The notes: a model not told the origin generated them from the letters alone. A stretch of 32,000 nucleotides of DNA from Syntrophaceae bacterium UBA5744 (GCA_002419215.1 DIFQ01000127.1:5332-37331), one strand, 5' to 3'. Shown: positions 7,078-32,000, counted from the first letter of the stretch. A program made the numbers and translations.

Positions 7078-7424
7078 CGCTGAAACTCCTTTCATGCTTT
7101 TTCAGTGAAATCTTGTGTAGATCGGGGACGGGATCCAATGTGACAGGCTTTTTTTCTACCATAATTCGCAGGGCGCGAACAGGTGGAAATTCGGCGTGTC
7201 GCGAAACCTGACGGCTGCCATCTATTTATGGTTGCAAGGCAGACCCCTTTTTTGATATTTTGACGCCCTGCAGTCAAATACCACTCCCGGAAGGAGGGGT
7301 TCCCGAAAGGGTGACGTCCGGGATGGCATCGGGCTGTTGCCTCCTTCCGTCTCGGTATCAAAAAACAAGATATTTCAAACTGTTGACAGGGTAGAGTCTG
7401 CCGCCGTCTTCCGGCGCCCTTTTT

Positions 7425-7457
7425 TTGCTTTTGTGCCATTATGGCACTATGATTGCA
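7425..7457 (+). promoter_or_regulatory. Candidate pgaA promoter: sigma54 -24/-12 element TGGCAC-N5-TTGCA overlapping a sigma70-like TTGCTT-N17-TATGAT
   Basis: tggcactatgattgca at 7442-7457 matches the TGGCAC-N5-TTGC(A/T) sigma54 consensus with exact GG-to-GC spacing. TTGCTT (7425-7430) and TATGAT (7448-7453) with a 17-nt spacer overlap it. The site is about 100 nt upstream of the pgaA ATG. Confidence 0.5.
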
Positions 7458-7557
7458 AGTGTCACAGTGAAATGCCATTGCTCGAGATCGAGCCTGGATT
7501 GCGCGTGAGACACAGAGCCCTTAACCGAATCAAAGAGCCCCCGAAATTAGGGAAACC

Positions 7558-9882: not shown

Positions 9883-11896
9883 GAAAAGGGTCCAGGGTCC
9901 AGGGTCCAGGGTTCAGGAAATCCTGCTTATCGCCTTGGCGGTCCTGTTTCTCGCGGTGTCGCCTGTGCAGGCGGCGGAGAGCTTCATCACGCTTTGCTAC
10001 CACGACATCCCCGAAACCCCCGTCGAGAAGGACGACATCTCCCGGAAGGACTTCATTAACCAGATCGAGTACCTCCGCACCCACGGCTTCACCTTCGTGA
10101 GCCCGGCGGACATCCTGGCGGCCTCGCGGGGCGCGAGGGCGCTTCCCGAAAAAGCCGTCCTGGTGACCTTCGATGACGCCTACGAGAGCTTCTACCGGTT
10201 CGTCTACCCGGCCCTGCGTCTCTACAACATCCCCGCAGTGCTCTCCGTCGTGACCTCCTGGATCGACAACCCCGAGACGTCGGGCTACAAGACGAAGCGT
10301 TTCATGAGCTGGCAGCAGATCCGGGAGGTCTCCGACTCGGGCCTCGTGACGGTCGCATCGCACAGCGCCCGGCTCCACCGGCTGCTGCAGGCTAACCCCG
10401 TCGGGAACATCGAGCCGGCGCCGTCGGCCTTCCTCTATTTTCCCGAAAGCAGGCGCTACGAGACGGAGCCCGAGTTCCGCGACCGCATCGGCGGGGACCT
10501 GGCCGCAAGCATCGAGGTCCTGACGGCGAAGCTGGGCCGAAAGCCCGCCATCCTCACCTGGCCCTACGGGAGCTACAACGCGATCGGCGTCGAGGAGGCG
10601 AAGAAGCTCGGCTTCGAGATGATCCTCACCCTCGATGACGGGTATTCCAGCATCCTCCGCCTCGACCGGGTCAACCGCTATTACCTGGAATCGCACCTCG
10701 ACTGGCTTGCGGCCTTCAAGGACTCGCTGAAGCGCGGCCTGCAGGAGGATTACCGCATCCGGGGCGTGCAGGTCGATCTCGACCCGATCGTCAGCAAGAG
10801 CTCCGCCGGGGAGAGCGACAAGAACCTGGGGCTTCTGCTCGACCGCCTCGTCCGGATGGGCGTGAACACCGTGTTCCTCCAGGGTTTCTGCGACCTGGGT
10901 GCCACGGGAAACGTGAAGTCGCTCTACTTTGCCAACTCGGTGCTTCCCGTCGAGATGGATTTTCTCAGCCACGCCGTCAACCGGATCCGGTCCCGCGAGA
11001 TGAAGGTCTTCGTCTGGATGCCGGCGCTTGCCTATGAACTGCCGGACCCCGTCCTGAACGAGGCCCTCAAGGTCCGGGAGTGGAAGGGCGGCAAGCCCGA
11101 AGTGACCTCGTCGTGGTACCGGAGGCTCTCCCCCTTCGACCCCAGAAGCCTGGAGGCAACCCGGAAGATCTTCGCGGAGCTGGCGGCACGCGTGCAGTTC
11201 GACGGCATCCTGATCCAGGACGACGCCTACCTGGCCGAGACGGAAGACTTCCACCCCGCAGCCGTCGAGGCCTTTCGAAGTCGGTACGGTATTTCGCCGG
11301 AGCCGGAGACGCTCAAGGCGGACAGGGAGCTCAACGCGAAGTGGGTCGCCTTCAAGACGGAGGCACTCGAGCGCCACGTCGGCGAGATCGTCAAGACCGT
11401 CCGGGCCTACCGTCCCGGGGCCGCCGTCGCCCGCAACCTCTACAGCTCCGTCGTGACGAACCCGGATGCGACGACATGGTTTGCCCAGGATTTCAAGGGC
11501 TACCTCGAGACCTACGATTACACGGTGGTGATGGCCTACGCCTCCATGGAAGGCAGGAAAGACAGCCGCAAGTTTTACCGCGAGCTCTTCGAGGCTGCAG
11601 GCGGCCGGGAGAACGCCTCCCGGGTGATCTTCAAGGTGCAGGCCTACGACTGGAAGGGCGAGAAGTGGGTGAGCGACAAGGCGATGAAGGACGACCTGAC
11701 GTTCCTTCTCTCCCTGGGCGCCCGGCACGTGGCCTACTACCCGGACGACGTTTACCGGAACAGGCCGGACGTCGATGCGGTGGCCGTGATCCTCTCGGCC
11801 CGGGATGAAGTGAAGAGAATGGGGACGCCGCCGGAGATTGCACCGGAGGGCGCACTCGAGAGGCTGTTCAGGAGGCTGTTCAGCCAAAACCCGTAA
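9857..11896 (+). CDS. pgaB: PgaB-like PNAG N-deacetylase (NodB/CE4 domain plus C-terminal glycoside-hydrolase-like domain)
   Basis: Signal-peptide-like ILLIALAVLFLAVSPVQA. NodB motifs are LCYHDIP...VLVTFDDAYESFY...ASHS. The long C-terminal domain (GVQVDLDP...VFLQGF...ILIQDDAYL) matches the PgaB C-terminal fold. The start is uncertain, with in-frame ATGs at 9827, 9842 and 9857. Confidence 0.85.
   Translation: MSRSTGTSKKRVQGPGSRVQEILLIALAVLFLAVSPVQAAESFITLCYHDIPETPVEKDDISRKDFINQIEYLRTHGFTFVSPADILAASRGARALPEKAVLVTFDDAYESFYRFVYPALRLYNIPAVLSVVTSWIDNPETSGYKTKRFMSWQQIREVSDSGLVTVASHSARLHRLLQANPVGNIEPAPSAFLYFPESRRYETEPEFRDRIGGDLAASIEVLTAKLGRKPAILTWPYGSYNAIGVEEAKKLGFEMILTLDDGYSSILRLDRVNRYYLESHLDWLAAFKDSLKRGLQEDYRIRGVQVDLDPIVSKSSAGESDKNLGLLLDRLVRMGVNTVFLQGFCDLGATGNVKSLYFANSVLPVEMDFLSHAVNRIRSREMKVFVWMPALAYELPDPVLNEALKVREWKGGKPEVTSSWYRRLSPFDPRSLEATRKIFAELAARVQFDGILIQDDAYLAETEDFHPAAVEAFRSRYGISPEPETLKADRELNAKWVAFKTEALERHVGEIVKTVRAYRPGAAVARNLYSSVVTNPDATTWFAQDFKGYLETYDYTVVMAYASMEGRKDSRKFYRELFEAAGGRENASRVIFKVQAYDWKGEKWVSDKAMKDDLTFLLSLGARHVAYYPDDVYRNRPDVDAVAVILSARDEVKRMGTPPEIAPEGALERLFRRLFSQNP
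9888..9917 (+). repeat. Heptanucleotide tandem repeat (GGGTCCA x3 plus GGGTTCA), also a G3N4 G-quadruplex motif
   Basis: Read directly: gggtcca gggtcca gggtcca gggttca gg. It starts 6 nt after the pgaA stop and lies inside the predicted 5' end of pgaB. Confidence 0.9.
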
Positions 11897-11962
11897 CGGA
11901 CCCATTCAGGAAAGCCGGCGGGACGGGACCCTGCACCACGCCCGCCCCCGCTGACAGGAAAC

Positions 11963-19701: not shown

Positions 19702-20565
19702 TCAGTTGGCGGCGGGCTGCACGATCCCGATCAGCTCGCGCGCCGTGTCCATTTCCCTGACCAGCCGGGCCAGGGCTTCCTCGAAGTCCTGCTGCGACAG
19801 GCCGAGACGGCCCAATGCCCCGTCCATCCCGTCGTAGGCCAGCCCGTCCGCACCCCGGCCGATGCCCAGCATGAGGCAGCCCTGGTCGGCAAGGTGGACG
19901 ATCCACGGCATCGTGGCCGTTTTGTCCGGCAGGCGGTCCGGCCGGTGATGGTAGGCGATGGCGTTCCGGATGTCCTCCGGGAATTTCCAGGAGGCGGCAA
20001 TCATGCCGCCCAGCGTGGCGTGGTTCATGCCCAGGACTTTCTCCTCCGCCTCGAGAAACGAGCGGGATTGTTCCGAAACGATCTTCTTGATCTCGGCGTA
20101 CTTGTCCTTCACGAACTCGCCGAGTACGATCTTCCCGATGTCGTGCAGGATCGCCGCCGTGAAGAGGCTCGCATCATCCCGCCTCGAGATTTTCCTCGCC
20201 AGGATCTGCGCCATCAGGGCCGTTCCCACGGCGTGCTCCCAGAGCTCTCTCGCCTCGGTCTCGTAGCCCGGGGTGTTCTTGAAGAAGCGCGACGTGCCGG
20301 CGGCCAGGACGGCCCGGACGACATTCTGCCTGCCGAGGTACAGGATCGCGTCCTGGACGTTGTCCACCTTGTGCCTGAGGCCGAAGTAGGCCGAGTTGCA
20401 CATCCGCAGGATGTTGGCCGTGATGGACTGGTCGAGCCGGATCACATCCACGAGTTCCGTCATGGACGAATCGGGGTCGTTGATGAGGCTCGTCACCCTG
20501 TGCACCGTGGCGGGAAAGGCCGGAAGCTTGGTCATCGAACTCTTGATTGCACTGTCCAGGTTCAT
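19702..20565 (-). CDS. HDOD domain signalling protein
   Basis: LPAFPATVHRVTSLINDPDSSMTELVDVIRLDQSITANILRMCNSAYFGL...VQDAILYLG...HDIGK...HHRP is a typical HDOD pattern. ATG at 20565 overlaps the cheD TGA (ATGA), with GGGAGGAG upstream. Confidence 0.8.
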   Translation of the reverse strand: MNLDSAIKSSMTKLPAFPATVHRVTSLINDPDSSMTELVDVIRLDQSITANILRMCNSAYFGLRHKVDNVQDAILYLGRQNVVRAVLAAGTSRFFKNTPGYETEARELWEHAVGTALMAQILARKISRRDDASLFTAAILHDIGKIVLGEFVKDKYAEIKKIVSEQSRSFLEAEEKVLGMNHATLGGMIAASWKFPEDIRNAIAYHHRPDRLPDKTATMPWIVHLADQGCLMLGIGRGADGLAYDGMDGALGRLGLSQQDFEEALARLVREMDTARELIGIVQPAAN

Positions 20566-21047
20566 CGAAACTCCTCCCAACTCCCGTTGGGTCCTTTCAG
20601 GAAGGTTTTCCCCGTCGCGATTTCCAGCCGGACGGCGCGGTTGTGATTGCCGCCGGTGTCTTCCGTCGTCAGGGGGATCGAGAAGCCGGCGAGGATTTTT
20701 CTGGCTGCGGCAATGTTGCCCTCGCTGATGCTGCGGGAGATCCCCTGGCCCATCAGGATCGAGCCCCCGGCCAGCCTTGCCGTGAGCGACTCCCTGCGCG
20801 CGCCCTGCCCGATGCAGGACTCTACGAGCAGCGGGATCGCCACGTCGGCATACATGGCCGGATAATCCGTCGCCCTGCGGGACTCCGACGCGGAATTCGG
20901 AAGCATGAAGTGGACGATGCCGCCTACCCGGGCCCCGTCGTCGTAGAGGATCACGGCCGCGGTGGACCCCAGCCCGTAGACGACGAGCAGGTCCTCCGGG
21001 TTCTTGCTCACGGCGAGATCAGCCAGTTTGACGAGGATCTGGGGCAT
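20562..21047 (-). CDS. cheD: CheD chemoreceptor glutamine deamidase
   Basis: 161 aa. ...LLVVYGLGSTAAVILYD...GGIVHFMLP...ARLAGGSILM...SEGNIAAARKIL...EDTGGNHNRAV matches CheD family conservation, including the catalytic Cys/Thr-His region layout. Confidence 0.8.
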   Translation of the reverse strand: MPQILVKLADLAVSKNPEDLLVVYGLGSTAAVILYDDGARVGGIVHFMLPNSASESRRATDYPAMYADVAIPLLVESCIGQGARRESLTARLAGGSILMGQGISRSISEGNIAAARKILAGFSIPLTTEDTGGNHNRAVRLEIATGKTFLKGPNGSWEEFR

Positions 21048-21108
21048 TGGGCACCCTGGTTCGGTTGTGGCCGCGTTGGCCTGTGTCCGGAACGGTTTTC
21101 CGTGTCGA

Positions 21109-21492
21109 TCAAGCGCCGCACGTCCCGGCAGGGATGAGCTGATGGATCGCGGCTTTCAATTCATCCATCTTCACCGGTTTCTCGAAGGCGAAGGCTGCGC
21201 CCAGGATCTTCGCCATCTTGAGGTACTTGGAGGGCCCGAGCTGGCCGCCCCCCGATATCGCGATGATCTTGACGCCGGGGTCGTCGCGGCGGAGCTCCAT
21301 GATGGTCTCCAGGCCCTCCTTCTCCGGCATGATGATGTCCAGGATGATTACGTCCGACGGGCTCTCCCGCTGCAGCCTGCCGGCCACGAGGCCGTTTTCG
21401 GCCGTGAGCACGTCATGCGAGTCCCTCTCGAGAGCCCTCTTGAGCATGAAACGCACATGATCGTCATCGTCTACTACCAGGATCCTTGCCAT
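21109..21492 (-). CDS. Single-domain response regulator (CheY-like receiver)
   Basis: 127 aa. MARILVVDDDDHVRFML...VIILDIIMPEKEG...VKIIAISGGG...AFEKP has the acidic pocket DD, a phospho-acceptor D in ILDI, and the conserved K in EKP. Confidence 0.85.
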   Translation of the reverse strand: MARILVVDDDDHVRFMLKRALERDSHDVLTAENGLVAGRLQRESPSDVIILDIIMPEKEGLETIMELRRDDPGVKIIAISGGGQLGPSKYLKMAKILGAAFAFEKPVKMDELKAAIHQLIPAGTCGA

Positions 21493-21683
21493 CGGTCTCC
21501 CGTGTGTTCCTTCCGGTCCGGTTGCCCGGCCGCGCAGTTCTGAGAAGCTTACAGAATATTTGCATCGTTCGTGCCACGCCTCACTGTTAAATCTGTCTAT
21601 CTTGGCAAAACCTAATTTCCTCTACCAACCTAAATCGTCTTAAGAAATATCCATCTTTTTCTTTGAGATTGAGATATATCTCC

Positions 21684-21726
21684 AAAAAAGAGAGGGCTTG
21701 CCGGAATATCGTAACCGTGCAAGCCC
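21684..21726 (-). terminator. Rho-independent terminator immediately 3' of the tRNA-like fragment
   Basis: On the minus strand, GGGCTTGC-(17 nt)-GCAAGCCC is followed by TCTCTTTTTTGG, 11 nt after the CCA end at 21738. Confidence 0.6.
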
Positions 21727-21737
21727 TTGATTTTATA

Positions 21738-21785
21738 TGGCACCGGAGGACGCAATCGAACCGTCGCGCCCCCAGGGGACGGGGG
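21738..21785 (-). other. 3'-terminal tRNA-like fragment (variable-arm hairpin, T-arm, acceptor 3' strand, CCA); candidate att site at the island border
   Basis: The minus strand reads CCCCCGTCCCCTGGGGG-CGC-GACGG-TTCGATT-GCGTC-CTCCGGT-G-CCA. That is a GTTCGATT T-loop, a 4-5 bp T-stem (one G:G mismatch at the 53:61 position), a 7-nt acceptor strand, a discriminator and CCA. No matching 5' acceptor strand, D-arm or anticodon arm could be folded upstream. Confidence 0.45.
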
Positions 21786-22007
21786 ATTTTGAGTTCAAAC
21801 CCGCATCCCGGGCGATTTTTCCATGATTTCAAATCTTTGCATATCAAGTGGTTGCAAGAGAGCATGTTTGGTTCCGTTTGTTCCCATATGGGACTATTTT
21901 GCTTGGTCGGTGACGAATAAGTTACAGGTAATGGATGTTAAGGCAGGCCGAAAACGATGGCATCGCATGATTTCACGCAGGCGAATAGTCACTTTCGAAA
22001 GATAGGA

Positions 22008-23192
22008 TCAGACATGACCTTGTGTTATGTAATCCATCAAGAGGCTATAACGAAACGTATGCTTATCATCGCCTGCCGACTTGAAGCGATCCAGTTCGCT
22101 GGCAACGAAGTCGCTGATTCGCTGCATGCCTATTACCATAGGTGATTTTGACAAGTCGACGACCTTCATCCAATCAAGAATCAGGCAACCATCATGGTCT
22201 TTTATTATCATTTTACTGCAAAGTTCGATCAGTCCCTTCGCAGTGCGGGCATAGTCATCATTGATGATCTCGCAGTCCCTGAGGGATGAATCCAGCAAGT
22301 TGACGATGTTCTCTCCCACAACTATTCGGGGATATCCTGCCTTCCGGCTTTCAAGCTCGTAGGCTTCAAAGGGGGCCCTTCCGTAAATGCCCGTCTTATG
22401 CATCTCCAAGGATATGCCGAGATCGATCCCCCCTCTAACAGGCTTCTTGTCCATCAACTGAAGGTACATTACGCTGGCGCATAGACGAAGCATGCTTTGG
22501 ATTCCTTCGAAAATGGTTACAAGGTTGATGCCCGTCGAAATATCCTTGCTTTGATACAAAGGAATGTAGATGACAAGACCATCTGCTAAACTATGAATCC
22601 CCATTTTTCTTCGAGGGATGTGAAGCTTGGCTGTTTTTGTTTTCGTCCAGTATTGACCGTAAAGCTCTTCAAATCTATCTCGCAGCTTGATTACAGCACC
22701 GAATGTTTCCGCCCAGATGCTTTTATGCTCGCCGTATTCTTCTTCCGGCTTGGGAAGGGTATTGAGCTTTCGCAGTCTGCTGCGTTGCCCCAAGAGGTCG
22801 ATGTAAGCGGCAACGTAAAAAGCAATGCTTCTAAATTCCTTTTTAATTGATTGCTTGATTGCGTTCCGGACATCCTTAATGAACTGATCAACCTCGGACA
22901 GCTCCAACGTTATCATATCGTTCGACAGGTTGTCGAAGTGGCGGATAACGATCTTCTTCCCGGCGACGCTCACTTCTTTGAGATGAAAAATAGGATCAAG
23001 AGGGCAGCCGCTGGATGCGTTAGTTAATGCGTTTTCAATCGAAAGTATAAGATCGTCCGATCTGTTCATCGGAACATGGATAAGATTACCTCCTCGCTTC
23101 ACCATTAATAGGCCATTCCCCATCTTGATTTCGATAGCCGGCGAGGCATTTGGGGGTCGTTTTCCTTTTTTCGTATGCTTTTTTGCGGTCAT
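22008..23192 (-). CDS. Hypothetical protein with a divergent palm-fold nucleotidyl cyclase-like domain (class III cyclase / GGDEF / Cas10-palm type)
   Basis: 394 aa. Three ordered motifs resemble the cyclase homology domain. IAFYVAAYIDLLGQRSRL resembles FxDIxGFT. HSLADGLVIYIPL resembles the K-x-GD-x-hhhF second metal Asp strand. VRGGIDLGISLEMHKTGIYGRAPFEAYELESRKAGYPRIVVGENI resembles R-h-G-I-H-x-G...G...VNxAxRLES...I-x-VS. The transition-state Asn/Arg of VNxAxR are not conserved (PFEAYE). Assigned from memory, without a search. Confidence 0.45.
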   Translation of the reverse strand: MTAKKHTKKGKRPPNASPAIEIKMGNGLLMVKRGGNLIHVPMNRSDDLILSIENALTNASSGCPLDPIFHLKEVSVAGKKIVIRHFDNLSNDMITLELSEVDQFIKDVRNAIKQSIKKEFRSIAFYVAAYIDLLGQRSRLRKLNTLPKPEEEYGEHKSIWAETFGAVIKLRDRFEELYGQYWTKTKTAKLHIPRRKMGIHSLADGLVIYIPLYQSKDISTGINLVTIFEGIQSMLRLCASVMYLQLMDKKPVRGGIDLGISLEMHKTGIYGRAPFEAYELESRKAGYPRIVVGENIVNLLDSSLRDCEIINDDYARTAKGLIELCSKMIIKDHDGCLILDWMKVVDLSKSPMVIGMQRISDFVASELDRFKSAGDDKHTFRYSLLMDYITQGHV

Positions 23193-23229
23193 CGTATCAT
23201 TCCTGCTACATGCGTTGCATCATGGCTAG

Positions 23230-24018
23230 TTATGACTTTCCGACTTCCCCCTCACCGGCGTTGAATTGGATGATCTCAGGACTTATTGAATTGGCGACTT
23301 TCAAGATCGCGATCGGGAACTCGGATGGCGATCCTATTCCGCCTTCCATCCTACTTATCTCCCGACCTCCAAAAACCCAGAACCCCGCATCACTGAGCTC
23401 CTGAAGCATTTCGCTCATTCTATATGCTGCTTTGACTCGATCATAAGGTTCAAGAACGTGCGAGAGATCCCCCCAATCCTGTGCCTCTTGAAAAAAATTA
23501 CCAAACATTTCAGCCTCTGATTCTGATTTGGGCTCGTCGTGGACGAAAGAGTAGGCCATAGCACTATCAATAATATTGATGACGTCTTGTCCCGTAGTTA
23601 ACCGAACGAGGTGGCTGGGAATATTCTCCTTGATCCTGCGGATCCGGACTGGAGGCGGTTCTTTGCGGTCGTTAAGGCTTGAGGATACCCATTTTTCGTG
23701 GTTTGACTTAATTTTTTGGAGTAACTCTGCAATATATGTATCGCATTGGTCATCGACCATCTTGTGGTGGACCCGGCAGAGAAGGATAAGATTATCGAGT
23801 TCATTGAAGCGATCTCCTGGGAACGCCGGATCGTATCGCGGCCCTTGGGTTTTAGATGACAAAATGTGGCATTCGTCGCCGACAACTGACTCATCATCTC
23901 CTGCCGAGGAATCTATCACGAGTTCACGTCGGCAAAAGGCGCACCTGTTACCCGAACGGCCCCATAGAATTTTTCTTGTCTTATCGGATATCGGCATCGT
24001 TTCTGACAGACCTGGCAT
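23230..24018 (-). CDS. HNH endonuclease-domain protein with an uncharacterised C-terminal domain
   Basis: 262 aa. N-terminal GNRCAFCRREL...GDECHILSSK...NLILLCRVHHKMVDD gives the CxxC...H...N...CxxHH zinc-finger HNH layout. About 150 aa of C-terminal sequence has no motif I recognise. Confidence 0.75.
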   Translation of the reverse strand: MPGLSETMPISDKTRKILWGRSGNRCAFCRRELVIDSSAGDDESVVGDECHILSSKTQGPRYDPAFPGDRFNELDNLILLCRVHHKMVDDQCDTYIAELLQKIKSNHEKWVSSSLNDRKEPPPVRIRRIKENIPSHLVRLTTGQDVINIIDSAMAYSFVHDEPKSESEAEMFGNFFQEAQDWGDLSHVLEPYDRVKAAYRMSEMLQELSDAGFWVFGGREISRMEGGIGSPSEFPIAILKVANSISPEIIQFNAGEGEVGKS

Positions 24019-24069
24019 TTGGTTTTGCTCCGCCGCTGTCGATCTTGATCAACTCAACGGGGAGCGTGT

Positions 24070-24930
24070 TCAGAAATTTTCTATACGACCAAGCTTTCGG
24101 AGAATCATCTCACCAAGTTGCTGGGGCGATGTATCTCGGAGATCGACATGCCCGATCGTCTTCCGTACACCAGGAACTTCAGTAGCGTCGAAACGAGCGG
24201 GTAAGATATACTCACCCTTCTCTTCGACTGCACGAGCCAAAGCACTCCTTCTCTCATGATTCGGCCATACCTTTTTGGCGTATGCACCCGAGATGAACAT
24301 GACGCAGTACCGAGCCGAACGATAAACTATGTCAAGGTGCTCTGTCAGTTCCTTGCCCCACATTGTAACGTCCTCATAGCGATCATAGAAACACCTGACG
24401 TCATGTTCTTTCAAAAAAGCTGCTACCTGTTCTACGTAAGCTCGATCTTCTCCGGCAAAAGACAGCACGATTTCATACACATCAAGATCTCCGGATCCTC
24501 CAGCTTCAAATAGGTCGACTGCTTTATAGATAGGTCGTCCCGATATGTGGGATGCAACGACCAACTTCACGCCGTCTTTCTCGAGAAAGGAATTGAATTC
24601 TTTTGACAGTGACGACGCCTCTGCATCATCTTTAACTGATAACGGATGGAGACAGGTTTCCAGGAATCTCAAGAAGATTGCATCGTCACAACCGAGAAGA
24701 TTCAATCTTTCGCACAGAAGGTATTGATGATCCCAGTCATCATTCCTGATCATGTGTTGCCAGATATCACCGTCCGCATTGTTGAAGCGATGATCAGTTG
24801 ATGGCATCTCTGATAAATTCCATATACGTTTCAGGAATGTCATAAGATCCATCCGCCCATGAAATGATCTCCGACCGCCGAGTAGTATGTGATCAATAAT
24901 TGAAGAGCGCGTGATTTCTGTCAGCTGCAT
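24070..24930 (-). CDS. TIR-domain protein with an uncharacterised N-terminal domain
   Basis: The C-terminal half YEIVLSFAGEDRAYVEQVAAFLKEHDVRCFYDRYEDVTMWGKEL...ARYCVMFISGAYAKKVWPNHERRSAL matches bacterial TIR_2-type domains (FxSxxxED, h-W-D strand, candidate catalytic Glu in WPNHE). ATG at 24930 (MQLTEITRSS) has GAGG 6 nt upstream and lies 13 nt after the upstream stop. The track start at 25026 would overlap the upstream gene by 83 nt. Confidence 0.8.
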   Translation of the reverse strand: MQLTEITRSSIIDHILLGGRRSFHGRMDLMTFLKRIWNLSEMPSTDHRFNNADGDIWQHMIRNDDWDHQYLLCERLNLLGCDDAIFLRFLETCLHPLSVKDDAEASSLSKEFNSFLEKDGVKLVVASHISGRPIYKAVDLFEAGGSGDLDVYEIVLSFAGEDRAYVEQVAAFLKEHDVRCFYDRYEDVTMWGKELTEHLDIVYRSARYCVMFISGAYAKKVWPNHERRSALARAVEEKGEYILPARFDATEVPGVRKTIGHVDLRDTSPQQLGEMILRKLGRIENF

Positions 24931-24943
24931 AAATTCCTCATTA

Positions 24944-27900
24944 TCAGAGTTGACTGGCCCACTTGAGATACTCGTCCATTCCGGGAATGTCCATGCGCAG
25001 AAATTGATCCTGCAGAAGAACGGCACGGCGAATCAGTTCTTTATCATCAGTTTCATCCGCCTCCCGAAGAATACTGGACAAAGCAGCAACAAGGGGCTCG
25101 GTGTGCCATATCCGATGAGGCGGGTCCACTTCACTCAGCTTAGTAAAAAGGTGTTCACAGATATCGATAGCAGAGACCGGATCACGTCCAGCAAGGTCTG
25201 CAAGCCAGTCTAAAAAGGAGTGAAGATTGAAGTTGCTAAGATCTATGGCACTGAGGAAATTGAGAGCGAAGTCTCGATCTAAGCGCCGGCCCTGAATCTT
25301 TGGCGCAAAAGCATGCTCAATAGAGCCGTGTATCCTCATGTCCAGTTTGTCCCATTTTAAAATGCGTTTCAGACCATTTACACAGGCATTGTTGTATTGA
25401 TCCAAATTGGCCGTAAAAACCTGAGCAACTCCAAGCAACGCCGTTTCAAGATTCATTGATTCCAGATGGGAAAATAGGACATCATGCTCTATGTGGCCAG
25501 ACAGGGAGGACAGTGCTGCAATTCTCCCCCAGGCTTCGCCTGCTTCGGCAGGCGCTTCAAGGCGCATTCTCTCCAGATAAGGAGCTACTTCGCTAAAATG
25601 TTCATGGTACTGATAGTATAGGTGTCTTTCAGCAAGGGGCCACAAATGGATTTGAGGTTCGCGGAAGATTTTGTGAAACAGTTGCCAACCCAGTGCATGA
25701 CGTCTGGCCGTTAGGTACGGCAAATGCTCCAACAAGGCGGCCCGGACAGCCCCTACAGGGTCATATGTAAAAAGGCATATGAGGGAGAACAGGCTTTCGG
25801 GGGGATCTATATCCTTTTCCAGTAGACGATTATACAGCATTATTGCCGAGCCAGCGGTAATTCCTCGTATACTGCTTATGGCGTCACTCCGGAGATCCTC
25901 TGCTGTTATCCCTTTCTTGTTCTGACTGAAGATTCTCTGCCGTTCTCCTTCCGGATCAGGGTGCTTGGAAAGACGGAATAGCTGTAGGACGAGTCGCCTT
26001 ACTGAATCGCTGTCCTCTAGGACTTCGCAACAGGCTTCCAGAATCCGGACTACTGCATGGCCATCCTGCAGTAAATACGGTCTGCTTTCTATGATGTCCA
26101 GCAATGAGCCGGCCAGGGCTGCCCCATCCGGCAGAGGCTCGGTCGCTTGCCACTTTTCAGGCGGTCTCAATCGTCCGAAGCGGTAACGAAGGTGGTCGGC
26201 CGCGCCGTTGAGCAGACTGCTTATATAGCCGGTCTTGAGGTATTCCCGCTCAACTTTGGGCAACAGGGTGAGGAAGCGCATCGGATTTCTTGAGGTTGCC
26301 TCATCCAGCGTGCGCTCTACCATGTCACGACCGCCCTTATTTATATCTGCGGGATGACTGCTGTGATCACTATAATCGTTGTAGTAAAGGAACAACCGGA
26401 GCAGATCGCTATCATTCAGCATCATGAAATTCTCCAGAGGGACCGGAGAACCTACCCAGCCACCCCGAGAATAGATGCGTGCCCTCGGTGTATATGGACC
26501 GAAGTGGGGTTCGAAGCGCTCGATGAATTCTTGGCCAGTAGGAAGCCGGAATATCGAGGGTATCCAGATAAGGTAGTTGTAAATGGGGCGGTAATCCCAT
26601 ATTGTCACTTCAGCACTCCAATTTTTCTCATCGTAAAGCGCGAGAATAGCTTTCTGATTTGTTTCTTGAATTTCCGGCGTCAGAAGGTGGTATCCGGTAC
26701 GTATCAATTCGCCCAATTCATGCTCGATGTGACCGTAGCGGAGCAGTTTCTCGTTCGTAAGAAGGGCACTCATTCCATCAATATTCGCTTCGGGATTTTC
26801 CTTATAGGCCTGTATGAGAAAGTAGAGTAGTACCTCCTCCTGGGAGGATCTAAGCTCCGGCTCTCGCCTACGCCACCACTCGTCATTTTTCCGGGCGTGG
26901 TGCTTGAAGGCATGCTCAACGGCAGACAGAAAGATAGTGAAAGCGTCAGCCGGGTGCATGTCATAATGGCAGTGGCTGTATTCCCAGGACGAGCTATGGA
27001 GAAAAGTCATTCTTTGATACCTTGCAGATATTGCGCTATCGCTGGTCGCCCACTCCTCCAAGGCATTTGTGGCGGTATCCAAAAGCCATTCTGAATAGAG
27101 CATCCTATTAAGAAAGAATTCTTTTTCATGAAAGACATGGGGTTCGCAGTGCAGCTTTTTTCCTACGTCATAGGATTTAATATCACTCGGGTTTACATCC
27201 TTGATGATGTATCTCCACAGCAATTCGTCGCCCTGATTAGTTGCATCAACATAACGGCTGATCACAGTCCCAAGAAAATCTCTTTGGGCCTTGCTCTCTG
27301 CGAATAACGTTTCCATCAGATCAGGGGTCCCTTCAATATCCCAGTGCTGAAAGTTGCTGAGCTGGAAGGTGACTTGTAAAGCGAGTTCGCTCGCATCCTC
27401 CCATCCGTCGGAGAATGCCCTCCTCCATAAGGAGACCACCTCGCCGGGATGGGAGTTCATCCAGCGCTCGAATTGTCTCACGAATAACTTGTACCACTCA
27501 CCATCCGATGTAGGTGGTGCGAGCGATGGAAGCCATCGATCGAGGAGCATCTTAAACCACGCGTCACCATTAATCCTCCAAAACAAACGGCGGAATAGCT
27601 CCGGTTCCAGACGAAAAAGCCGCTGCAATAAGGGCCAGTCCTCACTCTCAGGATTAATTTCAGCAAGTGATTCAGCAATCAGACGTCTAAAGTGATAGGC
27701 AATCTCCGTGTCGTGTAAGGCAGCCCATATTTGTCTGGGGAACAGGTCAGGGGCGTGAGTCCGCAAGTGGAATACGAAGGTGCGCACAGCAGCACGTAGA
27801 AATGGGAAGGGAGGATGGGCTTTTATGAACGCAGCAAGATCTTCATTGCGTGCGATAGAGGAATAGACCGCCATGTTGTCAAGCAGGGTCTGATGACTGA

Positions 27901-29521
27901 ATCCGAAATTGCCATTTGGATCTTCATATAGAACTCCATTGCTGACTAGGGACCGGCGGATATATTCCCCACCTGAAAAGGCTGCAGGATGGATAAGGTT
28001 AGTACGATCACGAAGCAACCGAGAGGCCAACGCTTGCAATGCTGCAATTGCCGGTTGTCCTAGGGCAGGATCTTTGCTGACCACCTCTTGGAGGTAAACT
28101 TCGTGTAATTCATAGGCCGTGTGTATGTCGCATCGACCGCCGCGCGATACGATTGCTTCAAACAACCGCAGATTCTGCGGGAGCAAAAGGAGACGCCGCA
28201 ATTCCGCGTCCACCTGTATTTCTTGAATGCCCCATTCTTTCAACAGCGGGGCCACAACTGCGTCATAGTCGAAGTCTGCAATGTGAATTTTATGATCCCA
28301 TTTTCGATCACGGAGTTGCTGATCGTACTGAAGATCAAATGTACGGCATGCCGCGACTACTGTTACGTTCCGCATCGGATTCAGACGGTCAATGAGTCGC
28401 AGGAACATGCCAAGAGCCCCATGCTCGCGGTTCATCGACAAAACATCCAGGGAATCAATTATCACAATCACACGGCGGTGCTCAGAGAGTCTACCGCAGA
28501 GACCGACGATATCTCCCGGCAAGCCGGCGCTCTTTAGATCCCCTTCGTTGCCGAGCCGCGCGAAAAGGTCTCCTTTAATGAACAACAGGCCGAAACGAGA
28601 GTCCTGCTCAATGCGGTCTGCAAGATCCAGCAGAAGGCAGGTTTTTCCGCTACCTGGTCGGTCGAGTACAAGCACGGTGTCGGCGCCACCTTCTATCAAC
28701 TGGGCTAATTTTTCTAATTCAGCTCTCTCGATCCGATGTCCCCCGACCGCTCGTTGCCACTGTCGACCAATGCAGGATGCCTGTTCAAACTGTTTAAGAA
28801 TTACGACCTCGCTTATCATGGGCGCCTGCACTAGGCCTTTCTGAGCGAGATGTTGGATAACGTCGTTTCGACGAATGGTCCATGTTGTGGCCTGAATCTT
28901 GGACTGGTGTGCATTGAGAAATGATTCGAGAACCGGTAGGGCCAGGTCGGCGTGGGAGACCAATTGTTTCAGGTCCCACTTATTTTGCCGATCCCAATCA
29001 TCAAAAGAATGGTGCGCCCCGAATTCGAGACGGCGTAAGAGATGGAGAGATTTTGCCTCGGAACATTCCCATTTAGTGGCTATTGCTGTCAGAGCGGCTT
29101 GCAGTTTCTCGCCGCTTTGTCGTTTGAATGATGCAAGATCTGGGTACTCTCTGCTTGCCTCCGCAAGGGACTGAATGTCTCCAAAGGGTGTACGGGAATA
29201 AAGTTCGACAACGGTATTATCGTTGCTTTCCAGTTGACTTCGGATTTTGGGCAATTCATCAGCCAGGCTCTGGTCGGATAATGACCATGCGCGATTTTGC
29301 GGCTGATTTTTCTTGGCTTGTATGTGGCGTCGCCGACCATTGGTGTAAACGACCACTACATCATCGACACTGATTTGCTCGTCGACACCCGGAAGGCCAT
29401 TCGATTCAGCCTGAATGAAGTCGATTCCATCGTCGTCTTTAATGAGACGGATAATCCAGTGCAGCGCTATCACACGTTGATAGTCATCCCCTTGGCTCGA
29501 TTTAGTGCCGGCTCTACTCAT
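24944..29521 (-). CDS. Large P-loop NTPase (STAND/AAA-like) with an N-terminal Cap4/DUF4297-type PD-(D/E)xK nuclease domain and a helical-repeat C-terminal region of about 1,000 aa; Avs-like architecture
   Basis: 1,525 aa. The N-terminus QGDDYQRVIALHWIIRL...ISVDDVVVVYTNGRRRHIQAKK has the GxxYQ plus D...QxK motifs of the DUF4297/Cap4 nuclease fold. Walker A is LDRPGSGKTCLL, Walker B is RRVIVIIDSLDVL and sensor-like is VTVVAACRT. The rest is Leu/Trp/His-rich helical sequence with no catalytic motif. Confidence 0.7.
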   Translation of the reverse strand: MSRAGTKSSQGDDYQRVIALHWIIRLIKDDDGIDFIQAESNGLPGVDEQISVDDVVVVYTNGRRRHIQAKKNQPQNRAWSLSDQSLADELPKIRSQLESNDNTVVELYSRTPFGDIQSLAEASREYPDLASFKRQSGEKLQAALTAIATKWECSEAKSLHLLRRLEFGAHHSFDDWDRQNKWDLKQLVSHADLALPVLESFLNAHQSKIQATTWTIRRNDVIQHLAQKGLVQAPMISEVVILKQFEQASCIGRQWQRAVGGHRIERAELEKLAQLIEGGADTVLVLDRPGSGKTCLLLDLADRIEQDSRFGLLFIKGDLFARLGNEGDLKSAGLPGDIVGLCGRLSEHRRVIVIIDSLDVLSMNREHGALGMFLRLIDRLNPMRNVTVVAACRTFDLQYDQQLRDRKWDHKIHIADFDYDAVVAPLLKEWGIQEIQVDAELRRLLLLPQNLRLFEAIVSRGGRCDIHTAYELHEVYLQEVVSKDPALGQPAIAALQALASRLLRDRTNLIHPAAFSGGEYIRRSLVSNGVLYEDPNGNFGFSHQTLLDNMAVYSSIARNEDLAAFIKAHPPFPFLRAAVRTFVFHLRTHAPDLFPRQIWAALHDTEIAYHFRRLIAESLAEINPESEDWPLLQRLFRLEPELFRRLFWRINGDAWFKMLLDRWLPSLAPPTSDGEWYKLFVRQFERWMNSHPGEVVSLWRRAFSDGWEDASELALQVTFQLSNFQHWDIEGTPDLMETLFAESKAQRDFLGTVISRYVDATNQGDELLWRYIIKDVNPSDIKSYDVGKKLHCEPHVFHEKEFFLNRMLYSEWLLDTATNALEEWATSDSAISARYQRMTFLHSSSWEYSHCHYDMHPADAFTIFLSAVEHAFKHHARKNDEWWRRREPELRSSQEEVLLYFLIQAYKENPEANIDGMSALLTNEKLLRYGHIEHELGELIRTGYHLLTPEIQETNQKAILALYDEKNWSAEVTIWDYRPIYNYLIWIPSIFRLPTGQEFIERFEPHFGPYTPRARIYSRGGWVGSPVPLENFMMLNDSDLLRLFLYYNDYSDHSSHPADINKGGRDMVERTLDEATSRNPMRFLTLLPKVEREYLKTGYISSLLNGAADHLRYRFGRLRPPEKWQATEPLPDGAALAGSLLDIIESRPYLLQDGHAVVRILEACCEVLEDSDSVRRLVLQLFRLSKHPDPEGERQRIFSQNKKGITAEDLRSDAISSIRGITAGSAIMLYNRLLEKDIDPPESLFSLICLFTYDPVGAVRAALLEHLPYLTARRHALGWQLFHKIFREPQIHLWPLAERHLYYQYHEHFSEVAPYLERMRLEAPAEAGEAWGRIAALSSLSGHIEHDVLFSHLESMNLETALLGVAQVFTANLDQYNNACVNGLKRILKWDKLDMRIHGSIEHAFAPKIQGRRLDRDFALNFLSAIDLSNFNLHSFLDWLADLAGRDPVSAIDICEHLFTKLSEVDPPHRIWHTEPLVAALSSILREADETDDKELIRRAVLLQDQFLRMDIPGMDEYLKWASQL

Positions 29522-29568
29522 GGACGTAATTCCAATGGTATTTAGATCATAAGGGATGGTCCTTTATG

Positions 29569-30813
29569 CTACAGATATGCTACAGCATTTTTTTGTATAA
29601 GGGCCACGATTTTGCCGATGATCCCATCGTTTTTCTGATTTTTTTCAAAATCCGTTGATACGGGTTCTGCAATAGTGACGATCCGCGAGGCCATATCGCT
29701 GACCATGTTGAGGACGTACCGGCGTTTTAAGGAAACGGCATCAGCGAATCTTTCCCAGTTTCGCGTGTGGAGCCAGCGGGCCCTGTTCTCCCCTCCGATC
29801 TTCATCGCGAACTTTTCAGCCAGGTGCGGGTAAACCTGCGTCGAAAGCAGGTCGTAGAAAGGTGCCAACTGCGGGCCCTTGTCCGTGAACAGGATGGATA
29901 GATTCTTCGCATGGGCGTCGGCATTTCCGACGACGACGTTGAAAATAACCCATCTGAGGAGGGCCCGCTGGTCCGCCGCCGGCCGGATGCTGTGCTCCTT
30001 GAGAAGGGCAAAACATTGCTCGAGCGATGGACCTCCCTCACTCTCGTATTTCTGCTCCGGCAAGATTCCCAAGGCCTGACAAAAGTCTTCCTGATGAAGT
30101 CGGACGACCGTACCGTCCTTTTTTCTTTCCCGGTCATAACGCGTGACGACCAGGATTGTATCCTGATTTTTCCTGATGATCACATCTGCAACGGGAATAT
30201 GCATTCTCCATGCGAGCGTCATGCAGAAGGCCTCATTTTCAACGGATTGCTCTATGCGGGGAATGGGTGGCTTGAGAACGTGCGTGCTGGGGCTGGTCCC
30301 CGTAGCAATATAGATTTTATCCTCGTCATCTATATAAACGGGTAGTTTATTCTGCGCACCGGCAAGTGATAAACGAATACCCTTATCCCCGGCTAAGAGT
30401 GGTCTCCTTGGGAGCTCGGCAAGCATCTTGTGGAATGCCTCTTCATCGAGTTCCCTGTAGCCGGAACGGTCAACAGGCTGTGAGCCCCGCGGGAGAATTG
30501 AGACGGCACCCGCGCATTCTCCTCCTATTTTCTCGAGCAGGGAATAGGCGTTTTGCTCTGAGACACGGAACTGCTTGGCAATCAGCTCCCGAATCTCCCC
30601 TTCGGGCAGGAGGTTCGCAAAAAAAGGACGCGCTGTGTCATCGGAGTAGGGCTCCGGCCGAAGAGGCAGTGATAGAGATAGCGGGAAAATGTGTGACCCC
30701 TTAAGCCATCCGGTATCGTATTGAAAGACAAATCGACGTCGCTCGTCAAGCCAGAGCTTTCCGGCAAGCCGGTCGCGGAAATAAACGTCGAGTCCTGGCG
30801 ATTTCTCACTCAT
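29569..30813 (-). CDS. hipA: HipA-family serine/threonine kinase toxin
   Basis: 414 aa. MSEKSPGLDVYFRDRLAGKLWLDERRRFVFQYDTGWL...FFANLLPEG...GECAGAV...LAGAQNKLP...NADAHAKNLS matches the HipA N-terminal coupling and kinase core motifs. Confidence 0.9.
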   Translation of the reverse strand: MSEKSPGLDVYFRDRLAGKLWLDERRRFVFQYDTGWLKGSHIFPLSLSLPLRPEPYSDDTARPFFANLLPEGEIRELIAKQFRVSEQNAYSLLEKIGGECAGAVSILPRGSQPVDRSGYRELDEEAFHKMLAELPRRPLLAGDKGIRLSLAGAQNKLPVYIDDEDKIYIATGTSPSTHVLKPPIPRIEQSVENEAFCMTLAWRMHIPVADVIIRKNQDTILVVTRYDRERKKDGTVVRLHQEDFCQALGILPEQKYESEGGPSLEQCFALLKEHSIRPAADQRALLRWVIFNVVVGNADAHAKNLSILFTDKGPQLAPFYDLLSTQVYPHLAEKFAMKIGGENRARWLHTRNWERFADAVSLKRRYVLNMVSDMASRIVTIAEPVSTDFEKNQKNDGIIGKIVALIQKNAVAYL

Positions 30814-31036
30814 TCGACCATGTCCTCTCCTTGATTTCTAGTTCGAGGCCGAGGGCCGCAAGGACCTGCAGGACTTTGTCGAGGCGCACCGTCGGTTTCC
30901 CGTTTTCTAGATTCGATAAGAAACGGTAATTCACATTGCACAGACCGGCGGCGTCTATGAGGGTCAAACCGTCCCCCTTACGCTTTCTCCGGACCGCCGC
31001 CCCGATATCCGTGACGGATTTTACGAGCATCATCAC
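30806..31036 (-). CDS. hipB: HipB-like XRE-family HTH antitoxin
   Basis: 76 aa. IGAAVRRKRKGDGLTLIDAAGLCNVNYRFLSNLENGKPTVRLDKVLQVLAALGLEL is a Cro/C1-type HTH. There is an 8-nt overlap (ATGAGTGA) with hipA, and GGAGG lies 6 nt upstream of the GTG/ATG start cluster. Confidence 0.85.
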   Translation of the reverse strand: MMMLVKSVTDIGAAVRRKRKGDGLTLIDAAGLCNVNYRFLSNLENGKPTVRLDKVLQVLAALGLELEIKERTWSNE

Positions 31037-31054
31037 GCTATTCCTCCGAAAATG

Positions 31055-31172
31055 TATTCCCGATCGGGAATATTAATAGAAGAAAAGTGATCTGTCAAGT
31101 GATTTATTCCCGACCGGGAATAAATTGCACCGATCGAGGCAATACGATATTGAATATTCCCGGACGGGAATA
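31055..31172. promoter_or_regulatory. Three phased 18-bp palindromic operators (TATTCCCG-N2-CGGGAATA) upstream of hipB
   Basis: tattcccgatcgggaata at 31055-31072, tattcccgaccgggaata at 31105-31122 and tattcccggacgggaata at 31155-31172. The arms are identical, only the central dinucleotide varies, and the start-to-start spacing is exactly 50 bp. Confidence 0.75.
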
Positions 31173-31319
31173 ATAATTGCCGCATTAAGCACATCGGCAT
31201 TGTGTACCGGGCGGAATCAAAGTTGACATCGCGTGTGGCATTTGTTAACGAATTGAGCGGAATAATTTGGCAAGTCAGGGAGTTATAATAAATAACTTAA
31301 TCGAGGCAGGGTAGGGCAC

Positions 31320-32000
31320 ATGCCAGAAACTCCGGAACAGAAAGCCCGCCGTGAAATCGATTCCGATCTTGCATCGGCAGGCTGGATCGTCCAGAGCCGC
31401 GACGAGCTCGACCTGACTGCCGGGCGGGGCATCGCCATCAGAGAATTCTCGATGAAACCTGGCTTCGGTTCTGCGGACTACCTCCTTTACCTCGATCGTA
31501 AGGCTGTAGGCGCCGTCGAGGCGAAGGCGAAAGGAACGCTTACCGGCGTCGAGGAGCAGACCGCGAAATACGCCGCCGGCTTGCCGGACAATCTGCCCGC
31601 ACACAGACGTCCCCTGCCGTTCCTGTTCGAATCCAACGGGTCGATTACATACTTTACCAATGGTCTCGACCCGACGCCGCGCAGCCGCCAGGTCTTCAAC
31701 TTTCCTCGACCAGAGACCCTCGGTGAACTCGTTACCCAGACCACGCAACTCCGTACTCGCCTGAAGCAACTGCCGCCCCTCGACGAATCACGTCTCTGGA
31801 AGGTCCAGGTACGCGCCATCCTCAAGCTCGAAGAATCCTTCAAGCGCGCCGCTCCACGTGCGCTCATTCAGATGGCCACGGGCTCCAGCAAAACCTTTAC
31901 CGCCATTACGGCTATTTATCGCCTGCTCACTTACGCCAAAGCCGGGCGCGTCCTGTTTCTGGTGGATACCAAAAATCTGGGCGAGCAGGCCGAGCAGGAA
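31320..32000 (+). CDS. hsdR: Type I restriction enzyme R subunit (HsdR)-like helicase-nuclease; N-terminal 227 aa, continues beyond the right edge
   Basis: Not in the ORF track because it is open at the edge. Manual translation from ATG 31320 gives MPETPEQKARREIDSDLASAGWIVQSRDELDLTAGRGIAIREFSMKPGFGSADYLLYLDRKAVGAVEAKAKG..., an HsdR_N / PD-(D/E)xK-like module with ADY...EAK. It is followed by ALIQMATGSSKTFTAI, helicase motif I. Confidence 0.7.
   Translation, partial: MPETPEQKARREIDSDLASAGWIVQSRDELDLTAGRGIAIREFSMKPGFGSADYLLYLDRKAVGAVEAKAKGTLTGVEEQTAKYAAGLPDNLPAHRRPLPFLFESNGSITYFTNGLDPTPRSRQVFNFPRPETLGELVTQTTQLRTRLKQLPPLDESRLWKVQVRAILKLEESFKRAAPRALIQMATGSSKTFTAITAIYRLLTYAKAGRVLFLVDTKNLGEQAEQE

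Follow-up and report, generated by a model that had tools for sequence, protein, structure and literature searches.

Four adjacent minus-strand genes (genes 1-4, positions 22008-29521) in a 32,000-nucleotide stretch of the genome of Syntrophaceae bacterium UBA5744 (GCA_002419215.1, DIFQ01000127.1:5332-37331; this whole stretch is called the window below) are very probably autonomous single-gene modules stacked in a horizontally acquired low-GC defence island, and not the components of one system. They encode an Avs7-family protein (gene 1), an AbiJ-NTD3–TIR protein (gene 2), an HNH nuclease (gene 3) and a cyclase-fold protein (gene 4). A preliminary description of this DNA, made from the sequence alone, had proposed a single undescribed system in which a STAND sensor and/or a cyclase signals to several effectors, and had named four stacked single-gene systems as the alternative. 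We rejected the single-system claim because gene 1 falls in a named family, because homologues of the genes lie apart elsewhere, and because a sister island, L180, has no gene 4; the alternative is supported.

The product of gene 1 was aligned end to end with Avs7 of Salmonella enterica (SeAvs7, 1523 aa), for which the cryo-EM structures 9N00, 9N01 and 9YIX are available (Lee et al., Nature 2026, PMC13581612). In a phmmer search, residues 1-1522 of gene 1 matched residues 1-1520 of 9N00_A (E 1.9e-206), and 9N01 and 9YIX were matched as well. The two proteins are of similar length (1525 vs 1523 aa) and share the order Cap4 nuclease, STAND NTPase and helical-repeat sensor, so that the layout read earlier from the sequence, a Cap4-nuclease N-terminus followed by a P-loop NTPase and a helical-repeat C-terminus, was upheld by the LmuA match (Table 1) and by the SeAvs7 alignment. 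In the nuclease domain, D53, D54, Q68 and K70-Q73 are invariant in 22 gene 1 homologues and align with the SeAvs7 motif VDDVV...QCKKNQ, which reads VDDVV...QAKKNQ in gene 1. The Walker A sequence GSGKT at 290-294 (K293, T294) aligns with GSGKT of SeAvs7, and the Walker B residue D356 together with R365, R393 and H543, equivalent to SeAvs7 D358, R367, R395 and H545, is likewise invariant across 22 homologues. The alignment extends through the last helix of the TPR-type sensor, which is bilobed in Avs7, the part that begins where the SeAvs7 delta-TPR construct was truncated (removal of 561-1523, PMC13581612), and the C-terminal helix of gene 1 is conserved among the homologues.

The full-length gene 1 family comprises 499 matches at E<=1e-3 and spans Desulfobulbales, cyanobacteria, Thiothrix, Bacteroidota and Enterobacterales, the enterobacterial homologues being about 31% identical to gene 1 (tblastn). 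Three members of 1700-1820 aa (P0202, P0248 and P0249) carry a caspase domain (PF00656) in place of the nuclease, which fits the effector swapping reported for Avs7. Every Avs7 feature that could be tested was found in gene 1, which is assigned by sequence as an orthologue within this named, structurally solved family; novelty of gene 1 could not be maintained. Expressed on its own, SeAvs7 defends E. coli against phages of the Drexlerviridae. The major capsid protein of the phage is bound by its sensor, EF-Tu acting as enhancer, and its ATP-bound NTPase domains form an asymmetric tetramer, after which the assembled Cap4 nuclease cuts double-stranded DNA (PMC13581612). EF-Tu binding was predicted for one clade only among 192 Avs7 homologues (PMC13581612). 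In contrast to SeAvs7, gene 1 is divergent in sequence and comes from an uncultured high-GC environmental bacterium, and both capsid sensing and EF-Tu use are putative here.

Like other Avs7 genes, gene 1 is solitary in genomes. Scanning genome contigs with the single gene 1 sequence returned nothing; an alignment-based rescan, with one genome per species, gave 80 Avs7 loci, most of them with 10-kb flanks, whose homologues are 30-68% identical. When these 80 loci were searched by tblastn with separate domains of genes 2-4 for relatives of the TIR protein, of the C-terminal domain of the HNH protein and of gene 4, only one weak HNH match was obtained. All-against-all clustering of the flanking open reading frames (ORFs) revealed no conserved Avs7 neighbour, every family being confined to 9 or fewer of the 80 loci. 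The closest Avs7 homologue, 72% identical, is also solitary, lying between VapBC on one hand and SocA, DarTG and AbiE on the other. From the side of gene 3, no relative of genes 1, 2 or 4 was found in 80 metagenome HNH loci, where the recurring neighbours come only from five or six syntenic contigs, and a hidden Markov model of the gene 4 family detected zero members in 2.17 Mb around Avs7 and HNH homologues. Homologues of gene 4, at seven loci, have unrelated neighbours. The four genes thus do not co-occur in the 80 Avs7, 80 HNH and seven gene 4 loci, contrary to the claim of a single system.

L180 (ENA ERZ25039545 contig_95364, island 6935-11944) was found via the 90% clusters of the TIR, HNH and Avs7 proteins, on a 51-kb contig from a different sample. 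It is 90.8% identical in DNA to the window over 23230-27988 and 89% identical over 21743-21926 (184 bp), and its surroundings, with a GC content of 0.66-0.74, hold genes unrelated to those of the window. Gene 4 is cleanly absent from L180 as an indel that includes its short flanks, indicating that it is a separate cassette (Table 1). The Avs7 gene of L180 starts at about residue 512 and is frame-broken, and the TIR and HNH genes (92% and 97% amino acid identity, respectively) are intact, which indicates that both have been kept in the absence of a functional Avs7 and of gene 4.

The gaps of 13, 51 and 37 nt on which the proposal of an operon had relied were confirmed from the ORF coordinates, the middle one becoming 72 nt instead of 51 if gene 3 begins at Met8, and a consensus hairpin scan of all three gaps likewise found no terminator-like site. 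GC content (0.46-0.50 in the four genes vs 0.63 in window 1-21000) and Pfam matches also agreed with the earlier placement in a low-GC defence island beside hipBA and a type I restriction-modification (R-M) gene. Since the four genes share strand, short gaps, lack of predicted terminators and similar GC, co-transcription is likely, and they are probably co-transcribed in part. Tight packing is nevertheless no proof of a four-gene unit, because the same spacing argument would include hipBA, where the end of hipA lies 47 nt upstream of gene 1 on the same strand.

Several points weigh against autonomy of the four genes. They have a common strand, short gaps, similar GC and zero predicted terminators; the TIR and HNH genes are still adjacent in L180; and 4 of the 52 HNH loci with upstream sequence have a TIR or AbiJ gene directly upstream on the same strand, which hints at a loose association. 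The contexts of the gene 4 family number only seven, and the co-occurrence sampling covers the Avs7, HNH and gene 4 families and, for gene 2, its two halves in plasmids. Cooperation specific to this lineage would be compatible with the lack of co-occurrence elsewhere, and a defence role of genes 2-4 is putative.

Gene 4 gave no match in Pfam, NCBIfam or PADLOC. Its AlphaFold model (predicted local distance difference test, pLDDT, 81; predicted template-modelling score 0.69) was searched with Foldseek, and class III adenylyl/guanylyl cyclases accounted for about 40 of the top 50 PDB matches, including the Pycsar-type cytidylate cyclase 8JSF (E 2e-4 to 3e-2; target-normalised TM-score up to 0.59), bearing out at the level of the fold the palm/cyclase-like core proposed before. 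D132 (end of strand 1, IDLLGQ) and D204 (beta2-beta3 hairpin) occupy the class III metal-binding aspartate positions and are 99% conserved (n=157). In the same 157 representatives, conservation is 97% or higher for D132, Q136, D204, R253, G271, E281, P288-R289, D332, D334 and Y382. In a weak profile alignment to the Ma1120 cyclase, Ala and Glu stand at the transition-state Asn/Arg positions; because this pair is replaced, the chemistry of gene 4 may differ from canonical cyclic nucleotide monophosphate (cNMP) synthesis. The N-terminal domain shows weak Foldseek similarity to PUR-alpha (3K44, 5FGP and 8CHT) and no Pfam match at E<=1. Weak matches to COQ8B kinase, to a designed helical bundle and to prefoldin were set aside as chance or low complexity.

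Compared with Pycsar/Pucsar and class III cyclases (bioRxiv 10.64898/2026.08.12.744502; 8JSF), gene 4 shares the fold and the two metal-site aspartates, but it has neither a Pfam Guanylate_cyc nor a PADLOC PycC match, its transition-state Asn/Arg pair is replaced, and its C-terminus is extended by an additional helical part that contains an invariant DxDG motif. Nor does gene 4 adjoin an effector bearing a cNMP-binding domain (CNBD-TIR or 3TM), as in Pycsar/Pucsar; the TIR protein carries AbiJ_NTD3 instead. The PUR-like N-terminal domain, a further difference from class III enzymes, is not general in the gene 4 family: this region is populated in about 8% of the 157 members, and about 92% have no residues there. 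As to CBASS, no CD-NTase was detected for any of the genes by Pfam, PADLOC or NCBIfam, nor among the top 50 Foldseek matches of gene 4.

A word-indexed search gave only 10 relatives of gene 4, and a profile search of 1.84 billion representatives gave thousands: 7852 clusters at E<=1e-3, of which 1199 reach E<=1e-30; the median length is 295 aa. None of ten family members, longer fusion forms included, has a Pfam match. Three of 150 listed representatives (P0254, P0356 and P0370; about 600-640 aa) align with the family profile at two or three places along their length, apparently as tandem cyclase-like domains, an arrangement that recalls the dimeric class III active site. In L009 (4535-7713), a type I R-M operon contains a 284-aa homologue of gene 4 behind hsdM, hsdS and a 173-aa ORF; the homologue overlaps by 43 nt the gene of a 788-aa protein that has no Pfam domain and may be its partner, though only in that lineage. 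Small ORFs upstream of gene 4 homologues were considered as split-off N-terminal domains and rejected, as they resemble neither that domain nor one another.

Gene 4 could also be a divergent nucleotide-binding or regulatory enzyme without an immune role, its cassette having been inserted at the island edge. We regard this as rather unlikely. It would agree with the discrete 1.3-kb indel, with the lack of a PADLOC match for gene 4 and nine other family members, with the ordinary genes that adjoin some homologues, and with the failure to find a relative in viral contigs (two scans) or in plasmids (tblastn with gene 4, a central family member and the gene 4 N-terminal domain). However, gene 4 sits in a low-GC defence island here and has a weak PHROG match, and the neighbours of its homologues comprise, besides an XRE regulator and an FRG-domain protein, the type I R-M operon with the 788-aa protein, a transposase, and a toxin-antitoxin remnant with a Sel1-trypsin protein. 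Patchy distribution and variable neighbours of this kind are typical of accessory conflict genes.

Gene 2 had been described as a TIR protein with an unknown N-terminal domain; the TIR assignment stood, and the N-terminus proved to be the Pfam domain AbiJ_NTD3 (Table 1). The TIR half matches the AbTIR NADase (PDB 8G83, E 1e-6), and by analogy E226 in WPNHE is the likely catalytic glutamate. AbiJ-NTD3 was defined by Anantharaman et al. (2013, PMC3710099), who listed its fusions to TIR, restriction endonuclease, kinase and ABC ATPase domains; the NTD3 fusions there are architectural analogues of the single-protein abortive-infection gene AbiJ (PMC3710099). Like AbiJ, gene 2 joins an AbiJ-type domain at the N-terminus and a toxic effector domain behind it within a single polypeptide, but its effector is a TIR and not a HEPN/Abi_C RNase, Pfam giving no Abi_C match. 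It is consequently considered AbiJ-like in action and yet, for want of a HEPN domain, not a member of AbiJ. No experimental work on an AbiJ-NTD3–TIR fusion was found in the literature. In plasmids the two halves of gene 2 match separate proteins: NTD3 accompanies "abortive infection family" and Shedu SduA-domain proteins, and the TIR half accompanies other N-termini, with no HNH nearby. A viral-contig scan with the TIR gene yielded nothing. In contrast to Thoeris, only a weak ThsB match was seen (PADLOC, E 2e-6), and none of five neighbouring proteins has a ThsA-type domain. PADLOC PDC-M01 was examined as a link between the TIR protein and gene 4, PDC-M01A matching the N-terminus of the former and PDC-M01B the N-terminus of P0332; the link was dropped, since the matches are weak and gene 4 itself has none.

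The reading of gene 3 as an HNH nuclease with an unknown C-terminal domain was confirmed. Its HNH domain is of the specific Cap5/SPARHA type, matching the SPARHA HNH-APAZ protein (PDB 9OM4, E 5.5e-25) over residues 1-115 only, Cap5 (7RWK, E 1.7e-14) and the PADLOC SAVED_HNH profile (E 2e-28), the last covering residues 8-144 only. C26, C29, E49-C50-H51, N76, C81, H84-H85 and R15/K16 of the helix are conserved in the family, so that the zinc cysteines, the catalytic His and R15/K16 of the CBASS Cap5 and SPARHA effectors (7RWK, 8FMF, 9OM4) are kept. HNH nucleases of this type are inactive until the N-terminal helix is freed, and are activated by oligomerisation (Kanevskaya et al. 2025, PMC12738770). 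The family has 1542 matches, the best 120 being 55-70% identical over the full length. Two start codons are candidates for gene 3: the ATG at 24018, which is preceded at 9 nt by a GGAG ribosome-binding site, and the second Met (23997, Met8), which is the start in most homologues.

The C-terminal domain of gene 3 was modelled at a pLDDT of about 90 or more (the HNH half at below 50), and it has no Foldseek match in PDB or BFVD and no Pfam match at E<=1. Neither profile nor fold comparison found SAVED on it, and no SAVED, CARF or cNMP-binding domain was detected on the TIR or HNH proteins, in accordance with what had been noted before. Unlike Cap5 and the SPARHA effector, gene 3 carries neither SAVED nor APAZ and is not accompanied by a CD-NTase or an Argonaute; no prokaryotic Argonaute was present among the island genes, and none is a conserved neighbour of the HNH genes at the 80 metagenome loci. 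Because there is no conserved partner gene, we infer most simply that the C-terminal domain is a built-in sensor in place of SAVED/APAZ. Neighbours of HNH-family members include type I and IIG R-M, Avs1, LmuA and other PADLOC families, so that a defence-island setting is common for the family. At four HNH loci the gene upstream encodes a TIR protein (L175 3182-4303, L129 1634-2431) or an AbiJ HEPN protein (L168 8765-9979, L127 1-492), at a distance of 21-151 nt, echoing the TIR-HNH order of the window.

Genes 2 and 3 might accordingly be taken for a two-gene module, AbiJ-like/TIR with HNH, beside an independent Avs7 and an independent gene 4, since in L180, where gene 4 is missing and Avs7 is decaying, they still stand side by side and undamaged, and since the four loci just named have such a gene upstream on the same strand. 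We judge this improbable: such a neighbour is lacking at 48 of the 52 HNH loci that include 600 nt or more of upstream sequence, the genes upstream of HNH include housekeeping ones such as a LolE-like permease, and the upstream TIR/AbiJ proteins are of other architecture, without homology to gene 2 beyond the TIR domain. Moreover, the adjacency in L180 reflects shared descent at 91% DNA identity and is not independent. Defence islands often contain TIR and Abi genes, and the adjacency at 4 of 52 loci was treated as island clustering. Scarcely credible is one four-gene signalling system, in which the cyclase-like protein or Avs7 senses infection and a nucleotide signal switches on TIR, HNH and Cap4: tight co-directional packing without terminators, the cyclase fold of gene 4 and the PADLOC matches of Cap4, TIR and HNH to effector types of CBASS, Pycsar and Thoeris speak for it, but co-occurrence is zero at the loci surveyed, SeAvs7 functions alone, L180 keeps intact TIR and HNH genes without gene 4, and cyclase signalling to several effectors is unsupported, the TIR and HNH proteins having no SAVED, CARF or cNMP-binding domain and gene 4 no canonical cyclase Asn/Arg pair.

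With the four genes as autonomous modules, the following scheme is proposed from the observed homologies, folds and lack of co-occurrence; the triggers and the enzymatic outputs of genes 2-4 are inferred. The four genes would form the distal part of the island, which is bounded by a tRNA-fragment-like sequence and holds, head to tail, a type I R-M system, hipBA and then these four autonomous sensor-effector genes. By homology to SeAvs7, the helical-repeat sensor of Avs7 would clamp newly made phage major capsid protein, whereupon ADP would be exchanged for ATP, the NTPase would form a tetramer, and the Cap4 domains would assemble and cut double-stranded DNA. Gene 2 would follow the AbiJ design with its HEPN effector replaced by TIR, the N-terminal domain restraining the TIR until infection and the released TIR degrading NAD+. 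The HNH of gene 3 would be activated by dimer-to-tetramer assembly, with the C-terminal domain as the sensor of the trigger. Gene 4 may be a nucleotidyl cyclase or transferase acting by itself, whose PUR-like N-terminal domain is probably nucleic-acid-binding.

Table 1. Positions of the four genes, their domains and neighbouring features in the window
Feature	Position	Strand	Remarks
Gene 1	24944-29521	minus	1525 aa, assigned as Avs7 orthologue
Avs7 Cap4-type PD-(D/E)xK nuclease domain	28799-29521	minus	residues 1-241; PADLOC LmuA E 5e-10, residues 5-241
Avs7 STAND NTPase module	27842-28762	minus	residues ~254-560; weak Pfam AAA, nSTAND_NTPase5 and NACHT matches
Avs7 C-terminal helical-repeat sensor	24944-27841, including stop codon	minus	residues 561-1525; collinear with SeAvs7 sensor to residue 1522
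Gene 2	24070-24930	minus	286 aa, from ATG with GAGGAA ribosome-binding site; AbiJ-NTD3–TIR
AbiJ_NTD3 domain of gene 2	24517-24927	minus	residues 2-138, Pfam E 1.5e-49
TIR_2 domain of gene 2	24115-24471	minus	residues 154-272, Pfam E 1.3e-19
Gene 3	23230-24018	minus	262 aa, HNH nuclease
HNH nuclease domain of gene 3	23659-24018	minus	residues 1-120, Cap5/SPARHA type
C-terminal domain of gene 3	23230-23658	minus	residues 121-262; conserved family-wide
Gene 4	22008-23192	minus	394 aa, cyclase-fold protein
N-terminal domain of gene 4	22836-23135	minus	residues 20-119; two beta-beta-beta-alpha repeats, PUR-alpha-like
Cyclase-homology-like core and helical C-terminal extension of gene 4	22008-22835	minus	residues 120-394
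Gene 4 cassette	21927-23229	.	1.3-kb discrete indel; L180 has 57 bp there
tRNA 3'-half-like sequence	~21743-21830 (approximate bounds)	minus	T-arm GGTTCGATT, then ...CCGGTGCCA end, read directly
hipB-hipA toxin-antitoxin pair	29569-31036	minus	hipA: Pfam Couple_hipA, HipA_C; hipB: HTH_3, HTH_37
Type I restriction hsdR start	31320-32000, running past window end	plus	Pfam HSDR_N, ResIII

The tRNA-like piece sits at the boundary of the low-GC island, is kept in L180 (11761-11944) at 89%, and is probably an att remnant of an integrative element. A full tRNA at the island edge was dropped as a candidate, as only a 3'-fragment-like sequence is present there: ARAGORN found no complete tRNA in the window, in L001 or in L180, and Rfam found none in window 20500-32000. 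At the other side of the four genes, hsdR is complete as a call of 947 aa in the metagenome annotation L001, and hipB overlaps hipA. Three copies of the palindrome TATTCCCG-N2-CGGGAATA were noted in window 31055-31177 at a spacing of exactly 50 bp, overlapping a sigma-70-like promoter on the minus strand (TTGACA at 31098, a 17-nt spacer and TAATAT ending at 31070) just upstream of the hipB GTG at 31036; the trio looks like a candidate HipB operator array, and an Rfam match to AaHKsRNA41 was discarded as spurious, reflecting these palindromes. The pair thus shares with HipBA type II toxin-antitoxin systems an HTH antitoxin gene that overlaps a HipA kinase gene and evenly spaced operator-like palindromes over the promoter. 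It serves as context only and illustrates how short gaps join unrelated modules in the island. In L033 (16065-17273, Thiothrix), a HipA homologue of 37% identity lies 1.5 kb downstream of an Avs7 homologue, a proximity taken as coincidental island clustering. An ORF of 227 aa on the plus strand (23576-24259), antisense to the HNH and TIR genes and called as a 226-aa gene in L001, is most likely a shadow ORF, since it overlaps two well-supported genes.

These results remove a false lead, in that short gaps and a common orientation within a defence island are no evidence of a multi-gene system, and the largest of the four genes is already named, as Avs7, with structure and mechanism described. 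The novelty that remains is moderate and lies in genes 3 and 4 as single genes, both from large uncharacterised families, together with the unusual PUR-like fusion on gene 4. Genes 3 and 4 might tentatively each stand for an extensive, so far undescribed family of genes that act autonomously in defence, gene 3 as a Cap5-type HNH nuclease under the control of a new sensor fold and gene 4 as a stand-alone immune enzyme with a cyclase fold, although we hold this to be the less likely outcome. If it is true, gene 4 could produce the signal for an unlinked effector or could be toxic through the consumption of nucleotides, with its PUR-like part as a nucleic-acid sensor, and the AbiJ/TIR genes that recur, in loose association, upstream of the HNH gene could be its functional partners. 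Two single-gene targets are offered: a widespread and unusually conserved HNH protein (55-70% identity across phyla) with a regulatory domain of no known fold, and a cyclase-fold family of more than 1000 sequence clusters that lies outside all profile libraries. L180, with no gene 4 and a decayed Avs7, provides a natural control. If the trigger of gene 3 or of gene 4 were shown, known effector classes would gain a new type of input.

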